DNA from: a virus
Lineage: Duplodnaviria > Caudoviricetes
Virus record (IMG/VR): IMGVR_UViG_3300033463_000015
Length of the DNA stretch: 64,000 bases
Direction: 5' to 3' (one strand)
In this document: one piece after another, positions 1-14,910 of the stretch
Position numbering within the stretch: the stretch's first letter is position 1
How the letters are laid out: the number at the start of each line of letters is the position of its first letter
The notes under the pieces: generated by a model
The model's input: the letters and a program-made list of their open reading frames with translations, nothing else
Databases searched by the model: none
Told to the model about the DNA's origin: nothing
Program-made: the position numbers and the translations under genes

Positions 1-23
1 AAGCGTGAAAACGCTTCTTGTAT

Positions 24-157
24 CTGGGTGTAGCGCAGTTTGGTAGCGCATCAGATTTGAAAATCTAGCATAACGGTAATGCTTTATATCAGAGTTCGAT
101 TCTCTGGATTTTCACGGGATCTGAGGGTCGTGAGTTCAAATCTCACCACCCAGACCA
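24..157 (+). tRNA. tRNA-Pro (UGG, or CGG in the alternative register) interrupted in the anticodon by a 57-nt tRNA-like insert
   Basis: Acceptor CTGGGTG/CACCCAG plus ACCA; D-arm GCGC-AGTTTGGTA-GCGC; anticodon stem TCAGA(51-55)/TCTGA(120-124); T-arm GTGAG-TTCAAAT-CTCAC. Removing 59-115 gives loop TT-TGG-GA; removing 58-114 gives TT-CGG-GA. Confidence 0.9.
59..114 (+). ncRNA. Nested anticodon-less mini-tRNA acting as intervening sequence in tRNA-Pro
   Basis: 7-bp acceptor GAAAATC(59-65)/GATTTTC(107-113), TA, D-arm GCAT-AACGGTA-ATGC, 7-nt linker in place of the anticodon arm, T-arm CAGAG-TTCGATT-CTCTG, discriminator A114. Confidence 0.85.
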
Positions 158-222
158 ACAGGATGGCATGAAACCTGTCACAATCTGCATAGCTGAGTGT
201 AGATAAAAACATGCCTATCAGC
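158..222 (+). ncRNA. Candidate double-pseudoknot RNA directly 3' of tRNA-Pro
   Basis: Pairings ACAGG/CCTGT, GGCATG/CATGCC, ATCTGCAT/GTGTAGAT, and loop GCTGA/TCAGC. Confidence 0.45.
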
Positions 223-325
223 ATTTAGCGCCGTTGGGAACCTTATGGTGGAAGAGCCCTACAAGAAAGAGGCCGAGTAGTATCCGCAACTCTTCCGGCG
301 CATTTTTTTATTAAAAGGAGAAAAT

Positions 326-736
326 ATGATAGCAAATATTTGTGAGCATTGCCAACACTTTTTAGAAGATCAAGCAGAATATCATTATTGCCATGTATGT
401 AATATGGATCATAGTTGTTTTTTACTAAAAAACAAAGAAAAAGTTTTTTATCGTGTAATTACATTTTGTAATTTACCAAAAGAAGATGACAATTTTCCAC
501 CAGACTATGACACACCAGCTTATTATGAAAATAAAGATGATGCTATTCAATGTGTAAAAGAAAATTGCTGTGATATTTATGAGGGTAGCTATCCAGCCGC
601 AATGGTAATTGAAACTGGATTTGGATGCTATCCATATTGCCCCAATCGTTGGTACTTTGAATGGGAAGGCGATTGGAGAACTGGTAAGTATGTGCAAAAA
701 GAAGAACCTAAATCATTGGAGCATTGGGGACTATGA
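326..736 (+). CDS. Hypothetical protein (N-terminal Cys/His cluster)
   Basis: ORF with AAGGAG RBS; CxxC...CxxC at N-terminus. Confidence 0.75.
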   Translation: MIANICEHCQHFLEDQAEYHYCHVCNMDHSCFLLKNKEKVFYRVITFCNLPKEDDNFPPDYDTPAYYENKDDAIQCVKENCCDIYEGSYPAAMVIETGFGCYPYCPNRWYFEWEGDWRTGKYVQKEEPKSLEHWGL

Positions 737-748
737 AAGGAGATAATT

Positions 749-1111
749 ATGGGATACTATACTAGTTATAATCTTGATGTAAAAGGCGTTGAAAATAAAG
801 AAAGATTTGAAGAATTGCAAAATGCACTAAAACAAATTGGCGTTATATACTATGCTTTAGATAGTGGTGAATATTTAGAGAAAATTAAACTTGCTTCATT
901 TTATACTTATGATTCTGCAAAATGGTATGAATATAATGATGATATGAAAAATCTTTCACTTATTTTTCCTAAATTTCTTTTCTGTCTCGAAGGAGTGGGA
1001 GAAGATTGGGATGATAGATGGCGTGCATATTATCATTATGGAGAAAGTGAATTTTGCCCTGCTCAAATTATATTTAAAGAACCAGAACGAATTAAATGGA
1101 GCGAAGAATGA
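749..1111 (+). CDS. Hypothetical phage protein
   Basis: ORF with RBS; MGYYT start and GVGEDWDDRWR motif resembling small phage proteins. Confidence 0.75.
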   Translation: MGYYTSYNLDVKGVENKERFEELQNALKQIGVIYYALDSGEYLEKIKLASFYTYDSAKWYEYNDDMKNLSLIFPKFLFCLEGVGEDWDDRWRAYYHYGESEFCPAQIIFKEPERIKWSEE

Positions 1112-1551
1112 AAATTTACACTTCTTATTGGGCTATGGTACGTCATTTTCCTACCAATCTTATTGGTTTAAATACTACAATTTGGCCTCCTAAATGGCGG
1201 CCACTAGGTAAAGACGCAAGAGGTGTCATTGTTATAGACTGCCCGCCCCTTAAACCCGGAGCCGCGTGTGAAGGTTTATGTAATGGAAAATGTAGCCCTA
1301 AACATCCACAAGATTGTGAGTTTCTAAATGTATATCAGCGGCAACTAGATGAAATTGATTTTAATCAATTTATGAACTCATTACAAAAATTACACGATAA
1401 GATTTGTGCTGAAGAAGGATTTGAGGATGTAGATTTTGCTCTCATTGTATATGAGACACCGCAGAATCATTGTAGCGAGCGTTTGCCACTATGGATATGG
1501 CTTCAAATGAATGGTATTGAACCTCAGGAATTTAACAAAAGTAGTATTTGA
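1108..1551 (+). CDS. Hypothetical protein (possibly DUF488-like)
   Basis: ATGA overlap with the previous gene; MKIYTSY start and ALIVYETP..HCSER. Confidence 0.6.
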   Translation: MKIYTSYWAMVRHFPTNLIGLNTTIWPPKWRPLGKDARGVIVIDCPPLKPGAACEGLCNGKCSPKHPQDCEFLNVYQRQLDEIDFNQFMNSLQKLHDKICAEEGFEDVDFALIVYETPQNHCSERLPLWIWLQMNGIEPQEFNKSSI

Positions 1552-1575
1552 CAATTATAAAAATTATGATATAAT
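1548..1575 (+). promoter_or_regulatory. sigmaA-type promoter
   Basis: TTGACA-16-TATAAT with extended TG. Confidence 0.8.
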
Positions 1576-1605
1576 ATAATTGAACAAAAGGAAAGGAGCA
1601 TTTAT

Positions 1606-1821
1606 ATGAAGCCTAGGGTAATCAAGAATCGCATCGAGTTTAATCTGTATCCTGATGAGGATAGCTATCAGCAGGCTGTAAGTCTTGGTTTTGATGTAGA
1701 TCAGGATATGCCGCTTGAAGCGCTTCATCGTATGTGCCGTTATTTTGCGCTATGTCTAGGTTTTGCAGAATCTAGCGTAGATGAGATGTTCGGTGAAGAA
1801 AGTTATAATGACCTCTGTTGA
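1606..1821 (+). CDS. Hypothetical protein
   Basis: RBS AAAGGAG; directly after promoter. Confidence 0.7.
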   Translation: MKPRVIKNRIEFNLYPDEDSYQQAVSLGFDVDQDMPLEALHRMCRYFALCLGFAESSVDEMFGEESYNDLC

Positions 1822-1990
1822 TATTGACCGACTCTTTAAAGATTTAATTAATTATTGGGGTACAGCTCCATTTGGATTTGTACTCGCGGCAATCGCAGAC
1901 GCAGAACAAGCGTGGGAAGAAGAAAACTACGATCGCATTGTAGAATGGGCAGTACAAGAAGGATTTAATTTGGAGGATTATTATGTTTAA
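1808..1990 (+). CDS. Hypothetical protein
   Basis: Coupled short ORF, MTSVDID start. Confidence 0.6.
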   Translation: MTSVDIDRLFKDLINYWGTAPFGFVLAAIADAEQAWEEENYDRIVEWAVQEGFNLEDYYV

Positions 1991-2189
1991 GTATAAGGTT
2001 CATTACTGGGATGAAGTTGAAAATAAGAATCTTGATGATACTGGTCTTGTCGCCGCAAAGTCTTGGGGCAAAGCAGTCGAAAAGGTTCGGGAATATTATG
2101 GGCCTAAGAATGTATATAGTATTACCGTTGAGGAATGGGATGAAGTTGTATATGCTGAAGAGGTTCTTAATGGACTAACTGAAGAGTAA
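1983..2189 (+). CDS. Hypothetical protein
   Basis: GGAGG RBS; coupled ORF. Confidence 0.7.
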   Translation: MFKYKVHYWDEVENKNLDDTGLVAAKSWGKAVEKVREYYGPKNVYSITVEEWDEVVYAEEVLNGLTEE

Positions 2190-2209
2190 TCGCGGCGAAA
2201 GCCGCATAT

Positions 2210-2495
2210 GCGGGTATGGCGGAATAGGCAGACGCCACAGACTTTAATAAAAAGAGCACTAGAATAGGAAACTTTCTGAGTGAATGCTGGCTAATTCGGT
2301 GAAAGTCCTTATGGGATAACGCCGAGCTAAATGGTTTAAAACCTAAATGTGTAGAGACTATATACCAGCCACCTAAATCATAAGATATGGTGAAGACATA
2401 GTCCAGACTACAACGTGTAAGCGGCCATAGTAATATGGAGTAGTAGGAAAATCTGTTGCCCTCTGGGCGTGCCGGTTCAAGTCCGGCTACCCGTA
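2210..2495 (+). tRNA. trnL: tRNA-Leu(UAA) containing a group I intron
   Basis: Acceptor GCGGGTA/TACCCGT; anticodon stem ACAGA/TCTGT; spliced loop CT-TAA-AA; long variable arm; T-arm GCCGG-TTCAAGT-CCGGC. Confidence 0.92.
2245..2447 (+). mobile_element. Group I self-splicing intron (IC3-like, no ORF)
   Basis: Inserted after U34 and ends in G; short P1 (CTT/GAG); core R GTAGAGACTA and S AAGACATAGTCC; same architecture as cyanobacterial tRNA-Leu(UAA) introns. Confidence 0.9.
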
Positions 2496-2546
2496 CTTAT
2501 AATCAAAACACCTCCCTTTCTCTACGCGGCGGAAACGCCGCATTAT

Positions 2547-2634
2547 GCCCTCGTGCCGCAGCTAGTGAGACGGGGTAGTCTCAAAAACTACTACACAAGA
2601 AACATCGTGGGCGCACATCCCACCGAGGGTACCA
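2547..2634 (+). tRNA. tRNA-Leu(CAA), atypical D/T loops
   Basis: GCCCTCG/CGAGGGT-ACCA; GTAGT-CT-CAA-AA-ACTAC; T-stem GTGGG/CCCAC with non-canonical loop CGCACAT. Confidence 0.75.
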
Positions 2635-2707
2635 GTGGCTTTTAGAACAAAAGAGGTTAGCCTGCGCAAGAACCCATATGTCGTTGCGGTGACGTGAAGC
2701 CGCACCA
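2635..2707 (+). ncRNA. tRNA-sized element with acceptor stem and ACCA but no canonical cloverleaf
   Basis: GTGGCTT/AAGCCGC 7-bp stem followed by ACCA, 73 nt, packed between two tRNAs. Confidence 0.45.
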
Positions 2708-2708
2708 C

Positions 2709-2779
2709 GCACCATTAGTGTAATGGCAACATTCCTGCCTTCCAAGCAGTAGTTGGCGGTTCAAATCCGCTATGGTGCT
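2709..2779 (+). tRNA. tRNA-Gly(UCC)
   Basis: GCACCAT/ATGGTGC; CT-TCC-AA loop; GGCGG-TTCAAAT-CCGCT. Confidence 0.9.
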
Positions 2780-2780
2780 T

Positions 2781-3152
2781 TGGGGAGGAGTTAAAAGCGT
2801 CCTCTCTCTGGTGCAATGCGGTAATACCTGTATACGGGTCCCAAAAGTTACCCTACCAGTAGTTAGAAGTCTGTAAAACTTCCATTGGGCTGGCTGAGAG
2901 GCCCGGGTCCACCTTGTAGGTTTCGCTTGACCGCAGGGGATGTATTCCCGAAACAAGCATTTAATATTATAAGCTGCCGACGCCTCTGCTGACGAGCAAG
3001 CGTACCACGGGGCAATGGGCTCGTTAATAACCTCCTCAAAACCGAGGAAGTAGGTACCTTGAGCCCTTCATTAATCAATAGGAGTCTTGAGCGGTTATTA
3101 GACTTAATACTCAACCGACCGATCGTACGCGGCAAAACAAATCCTATTGACG
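2781..3152 (+). ncRNA. Unidentified ~370-nt structured RNA inside the tRNA cluster
   Basis: GC-rich with no credible ORF/RBS; many nested stems (CTGGT/ACCAG, GGTAA/TTACC, GGGCTC/GAGCCC, TCAATAGGA/TCCTATTGA); bounded by tRNA-Gly and tRNA-Ser. Confidence 0.55.
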
Positions 3153-3156
3153 TTAT

Positions 3157-3243
3157 GCAGATGTGGCTGAGTGGTCTAAAGCAGCGGTTTGCTAAACCGT
3201 CGTACTTTCATCGGTACCGAAGGTTCAAATCCTTCCATCTGCG
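3157..3243 (+). tRNA. tRNA-Ser(GCU)
   Basis: GCAGATG/CATCTGC-G; GCGGT-TT-GCT-AA-ACCGT; long variable arm; GAAGG-TTCAAAT-CCTTC. Confidence 0.92.
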
Positions 3244-3261
3244 CTTTAAGGAGATGATTCT

Positions 3262-3525
3262 ATGGAAAATAAAGAAAATACTTCGATGTTAGAGGGATGG
3301 CGTTGCCCTTAGTGTGGAGCAGTAATGTCTCCATTTGTACGTAGCTGTGTAAATTGTGTTGGTAAATCTTCGCCTACAGTTGTTCAACCAAATACGACTA
3401 CTCCATTAACTGAGCCATATCCATCTACAACTACACCTATATATGAAGAAGTTCCTTGGTGGATAACATACAATAGACCAATTACTATTACTTGTGAAAC
3501 AAAACCAGTTCAATGCTGGTTGTAA
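3262..3525 (+). CDS. Zn-ribbon protein (TAG=Gln)
   Basis: RBS AAGGAG, then MENKENTSMLEGWRCP*CGAVMSPFVRSCVNC; readthrough restores CPQC...CxxC. Confidence 0.8.
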
Positions 3526-3531
3526 AGGAGA

Positions 3532-3774
3532 ATGATTATGGATAGATTACGTATTCGTATTTTAAGCCAGAATGATGTAGTCTCGCTAGTAAATAGTCTA
3601 AATACTTGGACTGATAAGTTTATTCTTGAAAGTGAAGATGGCACTTATAGAGTAAATGCCAAGAGCGTTCTTGGTGTTCTTTACTTTGTGTCTGAACACC
3701 CAATGGATACTTATCTTATAAATATGACTAGCGGCGGCTACTACCCTGATGGTGCTATGCGTTTTCGCTTTTGA
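3532..3774 (+). CDS. HPr/Crh-like phosphocarrier homolog
   Basis: 80 aa; RVNAKSVLGVL matches the HPr Ser46 regulatory motif; no His at the His15 position. Confidence 0.7.
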   Translation: MIMDRLRIRILSQNDVVSLVNSLNTWTDKFILESEDGTYRVNAKSVLGVLYFVSEHPMDTYLINMTSGGYYPDGAMRFRF

Positions 3775-3787
3775 AAGCGCAATTTAA

Positions 3788-3859
3788 TGAGGATTCGTAT
3801 AACGGCGAGTACACACGGCTTTGACCCGGGTAGCGATGGTTCGATTCCATCATCCTCAG
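3788..3859 (+). tRNA. tRNA-Gln(UUG)
   Basis: TGAGGAT/ATCCTCA-G; CT-TTG-AC loop; GATGG-TTCGATT-CCATC. Confidence 0.9.
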
Positions 3860-3864
3860 CTTAT

Positions 3865-3950
3865 GGGCATGTGGCCGAGTGGTTTAAGGCGGCGGTCTTG
3901 AAAACCGTTGATGTGATGAACATCCGTGGGTTCAAATCCTACCGTGCCCG
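3865..3950 (+). tRNA. tRNA-Ser(UGA)
   Basis: GGGCATG/CGTGCCC-G; GCGGT-CT-TGA-AA-ACCGT; variable arm; GTGGG-TTCAAAT-CCTAC. Confidence 0.92.
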
Positions 3951-3974
3951 TCAATCTTATAAGGTGGTGATACT

Positions 3975-4241
3975 ATGCGCGAAACAGCTGAACGACGTCA
4001 TAATGATTGGACAAAGGCTATTCGTAAGCGTAATTTATATCCCGATTATTATGATAATCTGCACCAATATAGTAAAAATAAAATTCATTGCTCTTGTCCA
4101 ATGTGCGCGAGAAAATCTAACAATAAAGGCATATACGCCTTCTATCATGGATCGCATAATTTAACCATTGCGGACCGCCGCAGACAAGAAGAAATGGATG
4201 ACCAACTTGAAGATTTGACTTTTGACGAAATTGATGTATAA
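3975..4241 (+). CDS. Hypothetical protein (HCSCPMC motif)
   Basis: RBS AAGGTGG; basic protein with Cys/His motif. Confidence 0.7.
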   Translation: MRETAERRHNDWTKAIRKRNLYPDYYDNLHQYSKNKIHCSCPMCARKSNNKGIYAFYHGSHNLTIADRRRQEEMDDQLEDLTFDEIDV

Positions 4242-4265: not shown

Positions 4266-4751
4266 ATGCCTACATTGTATATTATGTGCGGTATTCCGGG
4301 GTCTGGTAAAACTTATTTTGCACGGAATTTTCTTCGTGCAGATGTAACAGTATCTCGTGATAATATTCGTTTCATGATGCTGGATGATAATGAACAGTAT
4401 TTTGACCATGAGGCTGAAGTATTTAACGAATTTGTAAAAACTCTTGTGCATCATCTTCATCATTTTGAAACAGTGGTAGCGGATGCGACTCATCTCAACA
4501 TCTGGTCACGTAAAAAGCTTACAAATGCTATTGACAAATATATTACGGATTATCGCATCGTATATGTGGTATGCGCTCCTTCACTACAGGTATGCCTCTA
4601 TCGTAACAGCAAGCGCACTGGCCGTTCTCGAGTACCAGACGAAATCGTAAAAGAAATGGCCGACAAATTTCATCCGCCCGTAACTGACGCTTATAAATTG
4701 GAAGATGAGCGAGCAGTAGGAGTTTGGTGGATTAATGGCGAACCAAAATGA
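4266..4751 (+). CDS. Polynucleotide kinase-like P-loop kinase (AAA_33)
   Basis: MCGIPGSGKT, SRDNIR, VADATHL, RNSKR..RVP motifs. Confidence 0.85.
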   Translation: MPTLYIMCGIPGSGKTYFARNFLRADVTVSRDNIRFMMLDDNEQYFDHEAEVFNEFVKTLVHHLHHFETVVADATHLNIWSRKKLTNAIDKYITDYRIVYVVCAPSLQVCLYRNSKRTGRSRVPDEIVKEMADKFHPPVTDAYKLEDERAVGVWWINGEPK

Positions 4752-5362
4752 ATAACATTTGGTTTACAAGCGATACACATTTCTTTCACGAGCAATCATT
4801 CATTTACGAACCTCGCGGTTTTACTACCACTATGGAAATGAATGAAGCGATAGTAGAACGATGGAACGAGGTAGTCCAAGAAGAAGATACTGTCTATCAT
4901 CTCGGCGATGTATTAATGGGACATTATGATGTTAATATCCTAAAAAGACTAAACGGTAATATATTTTTAATTCGCGGCAATCACGATACATTGCAGAAAA
5001 TTAGCGACATCTACGAAACTGGCAAGGTAACTAATATTATACACACTAGCGAACTTTTAAAGTTCGGCAAACTAAATTTCTTTTGTTGCCATTATCCAGT
5101 TCTTACTGCTAATTTTGATGATAAGCATTTTTCGCAGCATATTATTTCCCTACATGGTCATTCACATCAAACTTCTAACTGGCTATTTCCTGAAAACCCA
5201 TTTATTTATCATGTTGGACTTGATTCGCACGATTGTAAGCCTGTTCATCTAGACGAAATTACTACGGATATACGAAATAGATGGAATCAATTAGGCTAGC
5301 TTCCAATCATGTTAAATAAAGATTATCATAAAAATTTCACCTCCGAAGAAAGTCAAGATTAA
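4748..5362 (+). CDS. Calcineurin-like metallophosphoesterase (TAG at 5297 read through)
   Basis: FTSDTHF, HLGD, RGNHD, HGHSH motifs; next TAA is at 5360-5362. Confidence 0.88.
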
Positions 5363-6781: not shown

Positions 6782-8002
6782 ATGTTAAATTCAAAACAGG
6801 AACGCGAATTAGCTTATGTAGGAATTATTGATGGTATTGAACCCATCCTCGGATATGACCGTGTTGAACACGCTATTGTTGGCGGCTGGCGTGTTATTGT
6901 TCAGAAGGGTCAATTTAATGTAGGTGATCCGGCTATCTACTTTGAAATTGATTCCCGCGTGCCTTCTGATAAAGAATGCTTTGCTTTCCTTGAGAAGCGG
7001 CATTATAAGGTAAAAACGCTGAAGATGTGTAAGACTCTTTCACAAGGTTTGCTTATGCACGCCGAAGATTTTGGTTGGCACATAGGACTAAATTGTGGAG
7101 TGATGATGATTTATGATGGAGAAGAATGGCATAATCCTCTTGATGAATCCCGCTTCCTGACTAAACAACTTGGCGTAACTTACGCCGATGAAGAAGACAA
7201 TCAGCGTAAGGCTCCTACTGTAGATAAGTATAAGAAAATGGCCGCTCGTCATCCCGAAATTTTCAAGAAATCTTGGGCTAAGTGGATGATGAAACATAAT
7301 TTTGGCCGCAAAGTGATGTTTTTCTTCTTTGGTAAAAAGAAAGATAAGAAGAATGGTTGGCCTTCTTGGGTTCAAAAGACCGATGAAGAGCGAGTGCAAA
7401 ATATGCCTTGGATTCTAAATGATGATGGTGATTGGATTGCCACTGAGAAGATTGATGGAACTAGCACTACTTTCTCTATGAAGCGTGGTAAATTTAGACA
7501 TAAATCTTTCTATGTCTGTTCCCGCAATGTATGCTTTGGAGAAGAAAGTAAAGAATGCTATTATGATACCAATGTATACTGGGAAATGGCTAAGCAATAT
7601 GATATGTTCAAGGTACTATCTAATTTGTTGGCCGCTTATCCTAATGAAGAATGGATTACCATTCAAGGTGAAACTTTTGGTGATGGTATCCAGCGGCGAG
7701 ATTACTCTCTCTGCGGTGAACACGATTTTCTAGCATTTAATCTAATTTTCTCATCTCGCGGTCGTGTAGGAACTCTTGAAATGATTGATATTCTCGATCC
7801 ATATGGAATTGAATGCGTGCCTGTGCTTAATTGTAAGATGAAAATTAATCAATTTGAAAATGTAGATGCTATTCTTACTTATGCAGAAGGTAAATCTTGT
7901 CTGGATAATTTACCTCGCGAAGGTATCGTATTCCGTTCTACTGATGGCTCTAAATCTTTTAAAGCTGTAAGTAATAGTTTTCTTCTAAAGTATCACTCTT
8001 AA
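6782..8002 (+). CDS. ATP-dependent RNA ligase (Rnl2/DRB0094-like)
   Basis: YFEIDS, KTDEERVQN, adenylation motif TEKIDGTS, IQGE, REGIVF, SFKAVSNSFLLK. Confidence 0.9.
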   Translation: MLNSKQERELAYVGIIDGIEPILGYDRVEHAIVGGWRVIVQKGQFNVGDPAIYFEIDSRVPSDKECFAFLEKRHYKVKTLKMCKTLSQGLLMHAEDFGWHIGLNCGVMMIYDGEEWHNPLDESRFLTKQLGVTYADEEDNQRKAPTVDKYKKMAARHPEIFKKSWAKWMMKHNFGRKVMFFFFGKKKDKKNGWPSWVQKTDEERVQNMPWILNDDGDWIATEKIDGTSTTFSMKRGKFRHKSFYVCSRNVCFGEESKECYYDTNVYWEMAKQYDMFKVLSNLLAAYPNEEWITIQGETFGDGIQRRDYSLCGEHDFLAFNLIFSSRGRVGTLEMIDILDPYGIECVPVLNCKMKINQFENVDAILTYAEGKSCLDNLPREGIVFRSTDGSKSFKAVSNSFLLKYHS

Positions 8003-13789: not shown

Positions 13790-14910
13790 CAAATTGGTTT
13801 GAACTTGGAGTAATGAAGTATTGGGCTCCAACTAGCGCTATGTCTCCTGAAGTGCGGCAACAGCATCTTGAAGATATGGCGGCTAGTGGTAAATATCTAT
13901 GGAGCGAGAAGTTTGATGGCAATTTTAGTCGTGCGGTTATTACGCCAGACAGAAATGCGCTTCAAACTCGTGGTATTAGTAAAGTTACTGGAACTTATTC
14001 AGAGCTGCAAGATAAAGTATTTTTCTGGGATAATGTATTAAACGCCTTCCAAAATACAACTGTAATCCTTGGAGAAATATATTTACCCGGCGGCATTGAT
14101 AAGGATGTTGGTAGCATTACTAGATGTCTAGTTGATAAGGCTCGCGCTCGTCAAAAGGACGTAAAGCTGGAATGGCGCATCTTTGATGTGCTGGCGCTAG
14201 ATGGCGAAGAGTTTCTAGACAAACCTATTGAATATCGTGTTCAGTTTATTCCTGATGTTGTAAAACGTATTAATTCTCCACTTGTAAAAGGCATTACTTA
14301 TCATCAAATGGATGAAACATTCTTTGATGAAATTCTAAAAATTTTTGAACGCGGCGGTGAAGGAGCTGTATGCTATAAGAAAGGCATCCTATATACCCCC
14401 GATAAGCGTTCAAGTGCTTGGACTACTTGTAAGGTAAAACAAGAAATTTCATCTGATATTGATTGCTTCATTACAGATGTTGAAAAGCCAACTAAACTTT
14501 ATACTGGTAAGGAACTTACTTCTTGGCCATTCTGGGAAGAAGCTAGAACGAGTAAACTAGTATATGGTGAATATTTTGGTGAATATAGAACCGGCGGCGC
14601 TTACACTCCAGTTACTAAAAATTATTATTATAATTATCCCGGAGCTATTTATGTAAGCGTTTTTAACCGTAAAGGTGACCCAATTCAGCTCTGTAAAGTA
14701 GCTGGCCTAACAGATGAACTTAAAGCAGAACTACGAGATAATTTTGAAAATTGGTATATGTGCCCGCTAACTATTGGTGGTATGATGGTTTCAACCGCAA
14801 ATGCCGCTAAAGATGGCACTGGTATTTCCATTCGTCATCCTTATATTAAACGTATTCGTAAGGATGATTTGAACCCGGAAGATTGTACTCTTGAAAAAAT
14901 TATTTCTTAA
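13786..14910 (+). CDS. ATP-dependent DNA ligase
   Basis: SEKFDG, LGEIY, IFDVL, GEGAV, KVK, IRHP..KRIRKD. Confidence 0.85.
   Translation: MTNWFELGVMKYWAPTSAMSPEVRQQHLEDMAASGKYLWSEKFDGNFSRAVITPDRNALQTRGISKVTGTYSELQDKVFFWDNVLNAFQNTTVILGEIYLPGGIDKDVGSITRCLVDKARARQKDVKLEWRIFDVLALDGEEFLDKPIEYRVQFIPDVVKRINSPLVKGITYHQMDETFFDEILKIFERGGEGAVCYKKGILYTPDKRSSAWTTCKVKQEISSDIDCFITDVEKPTKLYTGKELTSWPFWEEARTSKLVYGEYFGEYRTGGAYTPVTKNYYYNYPGAIYVSVFNRKGDPIQLCKVAGLTDELKAELRDNFENWYMCPLTIGGMMVSTANAAKDGTGISIRHPYIKRIRKDDLNPEDCTLEKIIS

Follow-up and report, generated by a model that had tools for sequence, protein, structure and literature searches.

It is, to our knowledge, generally thought that bacteria and their viruses remove introns from transfer RNAs (tRNAs) by group I self-splicing only, and protein-dependent tRNA splicing is regarded as an archaeal and eukaryotic trait. 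A question is therefore raised by the Caudoviricetes record IMGVR_UViG_3300033463_000015 in IMG/VR, of which a stretch of 64,000 nucleotides (nt), referred to here as the window, was analysed: how might a phage mature a tRNA-Pro (positions 24-157) whose anticodon loop is split by 57 nt that are themselves shaped like a tRNA? We put the probability at roughly one half that this insert (59-115) is a tRNA-shaped intron belonging to a recurrent, ribozyme-less family found in the anticodon loops of tRNAs from large phages of the gut or rumen type, many of which are TAG-recoded. The window copy is a variant that has neither an anticodon arm nor CCA and whose tail is 2 nt long, and it occurs as presence and absence alleles at one locus.

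The outer gene has the arms and the identity elements of a tRNA-Pro. The Rfam tRNA model (RF00005) matches 24-154 with 57.2 bits (gathering score 29), treating 59 nt as an insertion in the anticodon loop, and the acceptor stem (24-30/147-153), D-arm (33-49), anticodon stem (51-55/120-124) and T-arm (130-146) are followed by discriminator A154 and CCA (155-157). In E. coli the identity of tRNA-Pro is specified by C1-G72, A73 and G35 G36; here C24-G153 and A154 are present, and G116 G117 become G35 G36 once 59-115 is removed. ARAGORN makes no call for 24-157 in its default mode and recovers the tRNA-Pro when introns are allowed. Both cloverleaf sets reappear when 24-157 is folded to minimum free energy, with all outer-tRNA pairs and all 16 base pairs of the insert intact (z = -3.5; 0 of 200 shuffles fold as well).

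The insert had been described in the original prediction as a tRNA mimic with a 7-bp acceptor stem, U8-A9, a D-arm and a T-arm but no anticodon arm, and both Rfam and folding bear this anatomy out. Its acceptor-like helix (59-65/107-113) is paired at seven of seven positions and is followed by the equivalent of U8-A9 (T66 A67) and a D-arm (68-82; stem 68-71/79-82) whose loop (72-78) contains GG. A linker of 7 nt (83-89) takes the place of the anticodon arm, after which come a T-arm (90-106) with five of five stem pairs (90-94/102-106) and a canonical loop (95-101), a discriminator-like A114 and finally C115, the tail being AC only with the exon next. Scored alone against the Rfam tRNA model, 59-114 reaches 42.5 bits (E = 1e-8), above threshold, with 18 model positions of the anticodon arm deleted; folded on its own, the insert forms the same three helices (z = -2.7).

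More familiar identities for the insert were considered and rejected. It is not a decoding tRNA, for those 18 positions of the anticodon arm are missing and the AC tail runs straight into the exon. A group I intron is discounted by the absence of any match to the P3-P9 catalytic core (RF00028) at E <= 1 within 24-157, the sole RF00028 match within 1-4100 lying at 2235-2420, and by a length far too short for self-splicing; a group II intron is discounted by the mere 57 nt and by the lack of an Rfam match at E <= 1. Indeed, Rfam returned nothing besides tRNA for 24-157 at this threshold. Nor is there a bulge-helix-bulge, a motif in which a 4-bp helix separates two 3-nt bulges on opposite strands, each holding a splice site; the fold offers a single 3-nt bulge (115-117), the 5' strand being free of any. 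The claim that group I and II cores and a bulge-helix-bulge are absent is thereby upheld.

That the insert is real and optional at this locus follows from comparison with relatives. An independent IMG/VR contig (L001, identical to L002 and L241; record G001), whose ligase is 89% identical to that of the window, carries the same interrupted tRNA-Pro (L001:1068-1201, insert L001:1103-1159), and two further loci (L242:1639-1714 and L304 ~2331-2402) have, within the same flanking sequences, an uninterrupted tRNA-Pro(UGG) with the loop CTTGGGA. Because the insert is present in an independent contig and absent from intron-less alleles at the syntenic site, an assembly error is ruled out. The window and L001 inserts differ at one D-loop and two T-loop positions, each of a kind that varies among tRNAs, while GG and T-T-C-R-A are kept in both; the exons differ by one compensatory double change in the T-stem. 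The L001 array holds about 24 tRNAs plus a transfer-messenger RNA (tmRNA), a near-complete set in which the interrupted gene is the only tRNA-Pro. Beyond these relatives the insert is scarce. No match to window 1-400 was obtained by blastn among GenBank phages; exact and degenerate scans for the insert found one copy in IMG/VR and, in metagenome contigs, either nothing or two chance matches in coding DNA; loose end-motif scans of IMG/VR gave >200 matches, all judged by their flanks to be chance save the known relative; and a synteny search with the downstream protein returned three loci only. A conserved non-coding element of 66 nt (158-223) accompanies the intron-bearing allele only, in the window and L001, and is absent from the intron-less L242 and L304. 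It has no Rfam match and its fold is not significant (z = -0.5, the element extending to ~301); the change of C215 to T in L001, inside a proposed pair, retains G-U pairing. The element may belong to the intron system.

The wider family was sought in loci gathered around the ligase, around an intron-borne endonuclease, and from tRNA-rich stretches of 20 related records. These were screened with ARAGORN and a script, acceptor pairing and a CCA end serving as criteria; near-CCA and CCA-less inserts were parsed by hand, and the output of a permissive script for long tRNA-like introns, mostly noise, was left out. The 15 short inserts tabulated represent 13 lineages, 12 of them besides the window lineage, and interrupt tRNAs for Thr, Lys, Ile, Leu, Gln, Asn and Pro as well as amber-suppressor tRNAs (Table 1). 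All begin with a 7-bp helix, and directly against its 3' strand stands a 5-bp stem that closes a 7-nt loop, the layout of a tRNA acceptor/T minihelix. Since an abutting perfect T-arm was not among the screening criteria, its presence is an independent confirmation. The tail is NCCA in nine lineages, ACTA in one and CCCT in one, that is, 4 nt long in 11 of 13, the exceptions being the window lineage and the Asn insert of L319. For the CCA-ended inserts, excision of exactly +1 to the tail yields tRNAs that ARAGORN accepts, with 7-nt loops. A search for the same insertion site in other isotypes had been suggested as a check; other isotypes do carry inserts, with a junction that ranges from 32|33 to 36|37 and is 34|35 in the window. 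Despite this varying position, U precedes the 5' junction in 14 of the 15 inserts.

Pairing rather than sequence is what these inserts share. Because MAFFT misaligned the mini-tRNA homologues, covariation was counted on segments extracted by position. In the acceptor-like helix 93 of 98 positions are paired, compared with 45% if each strand is matched to that of another element, although the strand sequences are merely 29% identical to each other. All 70 T-stem positions are paired, every one of the 15 inserts has G-C as the stem pair bordering the loop (the G53-C61 equivalent), and C at position 3 of the T-loop (the C56 equivalent) is conserved across lineages. Two orthologous tRNA-Gln introns are separated by six double compensatory changes in the acceptor-like and T stems, with nearly identical exons on either side. 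A covariance model (R1), a check suggested along with compensatory change in the inner stems, recovered the closest remote homologues of the window insert at L322:13274-13333(-) (Lys) and L319:1520-1573 (Asn), at 39 and 64 bits; like the window insert they lack an anticodon arm, and they share its D-stem and have a canonical T-loop. Across the family the inner elements span 49-123 nt and are diverse in their middle sequence, only the acceptor/T minihelix being common to all. In the relative G016 the amber-suppressor tRNA (anticodon CUA; L325:17826-17975) is split at 35|36 by a CCA-ended insert of 75 nt, and stop-codon recoding in that phage would depend on splicing.

Table 1. Coordinates of features in the window and of the tRNA loci that hold tRNA-shaped inserts in related phages (window coordinates unless a locus is named)
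Feature	Location	Strand	Basis
5' exon of tRNA-Pro (acceptor 5' strand, D-arm, anticodon-stem 5' strand 51-55, loop 56-58 = U32 U33 U34)	24..58	+	Rfam tRNA match and fold
tRNA-shaped insert (putative intron), 57 nt, without anticodon arm, without CCA	59..115	+	Rfam tRNA, folds, relative L001 copy, remote homologues
3' exon of tRNA-Pro (G35 G36 G37 A38, anticodon-stem 3' strand 120-124, variable loop, T-arm 130-146, acceptor 3' strand, A154, CCA 155-157)	116..157	+	Sequence, Rfam, fold
Conserved non-coding element, 66 nt, flush with the tRNA CCA	158..223	+	Alignment of window, L001, L242 and L304
P-loop kinase (AAA_33 / polynucleotide-kinase-like), candidate for 5'-end healing	4266..4751	+	Pfam AAA_33, E = 2.6e-20
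Calcineurin-like metallophosphoesterase, candidate for 3'-end healing, one in-frame TAG	4748..5362	+	Pfam Metallophos, E = 1.3e-7
ATP-dependent RNA ligase, candidate exon sealer, N-terminal OB and nucleotidyltransferase	6782..8002	+	Pfam PHA02142 OB, 3.7e-20; RNA_ligase, 3.2e-21
Thr insert (117 nt)	L242:303-492		
Lys inserts	L292:833-986; L322:13234-13369(-)		
Ile inserts	L277:651-799; L325:7855-8002		
Leu inserts	L250:17434-17569; L322:15877-16033(-); L324:10014-10205		
Gln inserts	L314:12045-12241; L318:10675-10873		
Asn insert	L319:1485-1612		
Pro inserts	L320:10016-10178; window; L001:1068-1201 (window lineage)		
Amber-suppressor insert	L325:17826-17975		

An enzyme that could join the exons is encoded nearby. 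The predicted RNA ligase of the window has as its best solved relative the Naegleria gruberi RNA ligase NgrRnl (PDB 5COT, E = 1.5e-28), which we take to be of the Rnl5 type, sealing nicks with 3'-OH and 5'-phosphate ends. The ligase had been labelled Rnl2-like, but it is NgrRnl/Rnl5-like and not Rnl2-like: an N-terminal PHA02142 OB domain is followed by a C-terminal RNA_ligase domain, whereas the Rnl2 type has its nucleotidyltransferase at the N-terminus and an Rnl2-specific domain at the C-terminus. The kinase and the metallophosphoesterase are located between the tRNA array and the ligase. Among the other records that carry inserts, a strong PF09414 match is present in G001, G002, G005, G016 and G027, a ligase of the T4 Rnl1 type in G023, divergent OB and RNA_ligase open reading frames (ORFs) below the Pfam cut-off in G022, G024, G033 and G038, and a weak ligase match only in G032; no RNA ligase was found in G037, a fragment that is 64% complete.

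The best-fitting mechanism that we infer for the window insert, an even bet when taken as a whole, is excision by the enzymes that mature tRNA ends followed by ligation. In the folded precursor the insert would make its own acceptor/T minihelix and D/T elbow atop the anticodon stem. Bacterial RNase P prefers U at -1, and the host enzyme would cut 5' of G59, leaving U58 with a 3'-OH, after which an RNase Z-type endonuclease would cut at the 3' end of the mimic, in the window copy after C115, to leave a 5'-phosphate. The outer cloverleaf would keep the two tRNA halves together while the NgrRnl-like ligase sealed the nick, producing tRNA-Pro(UGG) with the loop UUUGGGA and releasing a free mini-tRNA of about 57 nt. 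Since cleavage by RNase P or RNase Z yields a 3'-OH and a 5'-phosphate, the halves would present the substrate that an ATP-dependent ligase needs. One published account (PMC7479834, which cites Minagawa 2004) documents RNase Z enzymes whose cut falls directly behind the discriminator when the precursor lacks CCA and directly behind CCA when it has one; these enzymes need a matured 5' end and tolerate the loss of the D, T or anticodon arm. The inserted unit has exactly the boundaries of a mature tRNA, and selection would act on the acceptor/T minihelix and the elbow, the features that RNase P and RNase Z recognise. Most simply, the insert is a selfish element that is tolerated because its tRNA mimicry gets it removed, and the dependence of tRNA maturation on a phage ligase would be a by-product. 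Somewhat more tentatively, and at slightly less than even odds, splicing guided by tRNA mimicry may constitute a third kind of tRNA splicing in large phages, in which maturation is ligase-dependent and the ligase could time decoding.

The register of excision in the window copy deserves separate attention. Deleting 59-115 leaves a 7-nt loop, TTTGGGA, with the anticodon UGG and U33 kept; deleting 58-114 leaves a 7-nt loop, TTCGGGA, with the anticodon CGG; and deleting 59-114 leaves an 8-nt loop. The same three outcomes had been given as a caveat in the original prediction, and reading the sequence again reproduces them. After splicing, the expected UGG junction is UCAGAUUU|GGGAUCUGA and the expected CGG junction is UCAGAUU|CGGGAUCUGA. 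For the tRNA-Pro of the window the UGG register appears favoured, because UGG loops result in the syntenic orthologues and in two more Pro genes with introns, and because CCA and CCT together make up 76% of Pro codons versus 14% for CCG (window counts: CCA 284, CCT 211, CCG 91, CCC 62). The UGG outcome needs a 3' cut after C115, one base beyond the discriminator, which is plausible if U58 pairs with A114, since C115 would then be the first unpaired base. CGG would need RNase P to cut at 57|58, by analogy with tRNA-His.

Several observations weigh against excision by tRNA-end enzymes. The window copy departs from the 4-nt-tail rule of the family, having AC and then the exon GGGA; a cut after discriminator A114 gives the 8-nt loop, and a ruler-like cut 4 nt past the helix would destroy the anticodon. 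In the other CCA-less insert, that of L319, a cut after the discriminator fits exactly. CCA inhibits cleavage by Bacillus-type RNase Z, according to PMC7479834; no RNase Z or RNase P protein was found among the ~40 window ORFs scanned. Related phages, moreover, have ribozyme-less introns with PD-(D/E)XK ORFs and no visible T-arm, which must leave by another route. Only two near-identical copies of the window insert are available, so that selection is not directly measurable, and because a clean insertion keeps x + y = 7 by construction, the restoration of the loop alone is no evidence of splicing. The proposal that the ends are set by tRNA-end enzymes and joined by a ligase is partly supported: the comparative evidence (12 other lineages whose insert runs from +1 to a tRNA-like 3' tail, covariation, U in 14 of 15 and the ligases) speaks strongly for tRNA-end enzymes setting the ends, whereas the window copy breaks the CCA-tail rule and simple RNase P/Z cuts there would give an 8-nt loop.

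Other explanations must account for the same data. The insert might be a true intron removed by a different nuclease, be it a phage enzyme, a host double-strand-specific RNase that cuts the lengthened anticodon stem, or the PD-(D/E)XK protein of the intron family if it works on RNA, with the ends healed by kinase and phosphoesterase if needed and sealed by the ligase. In the fold the anticodon stem does continue through the terminal helix of the insert with one 3-nt bulge, and the kinase and metallophosphoesterase between the tRNAs and the ligase would be superfluous for an RNase P/Z route, although a kinase, phosphoesterase and ligase set is what phages usually deploy against host anticodon nucleases as well. 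Yet the parts that are conserved or covary are specific to tRNAs (the abutting T-arm, the G-C next to the loop, the C56 equivalent and NCCA) and would be unneeded by a duplex cutter, and the terminal helices hold no common sequence for a specific protein to read. Ribozyme-less introns with PDDEXK_5 ORFs and no T-arm are known in relatives, and gene calls give two such ORFs 2.4-4.5 kb upstream of the window; these ORFs are, however, homologous to PDB 2OST, presumably the DNA homing endonuclease I-Ssp6803I, and so more likely provide mobility than splicing. Record G001, in addition, retains the insert with no PDDEXK_5 gene seen in its 77 kb. Such a nuclease is considered unlikely.

Two further accounts are less probable still. 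The window copy could be an intron in decay, its CCA tail lost and its splicing no longer correct, sitting in a dead or dying tRNA-Pro. Its AC tail in place of NCCA, against 11 of 13 lineages with a 4-nt tail, would be explained in this way, as would the lack of a register that suits both the canonical RNase P site and a post-discriminator cut, and the finding of only two close copies, additional scans having given none. Against decay stand 16 of 16 insert pairs and all outer pairs intact, differences from L001 confined to tRNA-variable loop positions and a compensatory exon pair, the gene's standing as the only tRNA-Pro in a near-complete L001 set, and the CCA-less Asn insert that accommodates a post-discriminator cut exactly; we regard it as improbable. 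Improbable to a still greater degree is the notion that the mini-tRNA is itself the selected product, a decoy or cofactor freed by RNase P and RNase Z like mascRNA, with the tRNA gene as its scaffold and religation secondary or regulated. The score of 59-114 alone above the Rfam tRNA threshold, the elbow-forming bases kept in both copies and a possible free-standing arm-less element (L313:19650-19708) agree with that idea. The inner elements nevertheless vary from 49 to 123 nt and in their middle sequence, leaving the processing-relevant minihelix alone in common, and their hosts are many different tRNAs, including amber-suppressor and only-copy ones that would be costly to lose. That element at L313, 59 nt long and not nested, was scored by model R1 at 18.7 bits.

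Excision by tRNA-end enzymes with ligation may be set beside several known systems. MascRNA of MALAT1 and the t-elements of plant mitochondria are tRNA-like signals for cleavage by RNase P and RNase Z, and in them too an embedded tRNA mimic draws tRNA end-processing enzymes and receives precise ends; their flanks stay unjoined, whereas those in the window are tRNA halves that need religation in the anticodon loop. Archaeal and eukaryal introns, removed by EndA or TSEN and joined by RtcB or Trl1, are likewise ribozyme-free, lie in the anticodon loop and require an endonuclease and a ligase. The window insert differs from them in having no bulge-helix-bulge, in its junction (34|35, with 32|33 to 36|37 in the family, not 37|38) and in its predicted ends, 3'-OH and 5'-phosphate rather than cyclic phosphate and 5'-OH; we know of no EndA homologue in bacteria. 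In the tRNA repair of phage T4, cleavage by PrrC is followed by healing by Pnkp and sealing by Rnl1. There, as proposed here, a kinase/phosphatase and an RNA ligase reseal a break in the anticodon loop, and the same gene set lies near the window tRNAs, but the T4 break is damage inflicted by the host and not the removal of an insert, and T4 Rnl1 contrasts with an Rnl5-like enzyme in the window. Group I tRNA introns, such as those of tRNA-Leu(UAA), are also inserted in the anticodon loop, a real example being present in the window at 2210-2496; the 57-nt insert, by contrast, lacks such a core and is far too short for self-splicing. The closest precedent lies in large, alternatively coded gut phages, in which Devoto et al. 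(2019; PMC6784885) called the tRNA introns of Lak megaphages "enigmatic" and remarked that the one interrupting tRNA-Thr(UGU) possibly encodes a tRNA of its own. Those introns resemble the present ones in falling outside known classes, though the remark came without a mechanism, a family definition or a link to a ligase, and the window insert differs from the Thr(UGU) intron in interrupting tRNA-Pro and in being without anticodon arm and CCA tail. Full-text literature searches found only this remark and no paper describing the mechanism, so that the statement that no example had been described was too strong.

Should the proposed route prove true, excision by RNase P and RNase Z with sealing by a phage ligase would represent a new splicing pathway, and phage RNA ligases would gain a housekeeping role past the repair of nuclease damage. 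It would account for essential phage tRNAs escaping standard tRNA finders. Moreover, the phage ligase would be needed by interrupted tRNAs that exist in one copy only and by the TAG-recoding amber suppressor of relatives, a possible switch for the timing of recoding.

The surroundings of the gene are those of a recoded, tRNA-rich phage. The window comes from a 174-kb contig in ENA, and samples containing this phage include ENA ERZ27257207 and Logan SRR10393135. Allowing TAG as a sense codon raises the summed length of six-frame, stop-to-stop open frames with 100 codons or more from 16.9 to 27.2 thousand codons, and the chosen window ORFs contain 186 in-frame TAGs, one of them within a C-P-x-C zinc-ribbon motif (e.g., 3262-3525). 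In L001 an amber-suppressor tRNA (anticodon CUA) lies just upstream of tRNA-Pro, at L001:974-1064. The first 4 kb of the window form a tRNA array of Pro, Leu(UAA), Gly, Ser, Gln and Ser, in which tRNA-Leu(UAA) has a genuine group I intron in its anticodon loop (65.5 bits in Rfam); two kinds of tRNA intron, one tRNA-shaped and one group I, are thus found within 2.5 kb of one phage. Between the tRNAs, 2500-2700 and 2780-3150 are long, GC-rich non-coding stretches, apparently structured, with weak Rfam similarities to cow-rumen-3 (35.7 bits; gathering 86.7) and DUF3800-XI (29.5; 37.8). The tRNA array of G001 (L004:12998-13571 and 14533-14886) includes a ROOL RNA (341 bits) and a tmRNA.

The related phages contain other interrupted or unusual tRNAs. 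Ribozyme-less introns of ~450-490 nt, nearly filled by a PDDEXK_5 ORF, occur at L258:946-1495, L276:930-1493, L282:932-1458 and ~25 more loci. ARAGORN places the PDDEXK_5 ORF inside a tRNA in 26 of 45 loci; none of these introns gave a group I match, the threshold being E <= 0.1 for 20 of the loci. They sit mostly at 36|37 of tRNA-Thr(UGU), their ends forming a long helix that includes the anticodon, with a conserved CATTG before the 3' strand. Inserts of 39-53 nt in L313:11158-11295 (Leu(UAA)) and L319:5039-5160 (ochre-suppressor-like, UUA) occupy the 5' half of the anticodon stem and not the loop, each bordered by a direct repeat of 5 nt. Finally, tRNA-like RNAs of ~115-125 nt, which fall outside the rule for tRNA-shaped introns, are found at L260:65-188, L268:89-208, L313:17057-17175, L291:355-478, L291:521-637 and L316:10226-10349(-); their acceptor, D and T arms are normal, and a hairpin with a recurring C-W-G-C-A-A ... 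T-T-C motif replaces the anticodon region.

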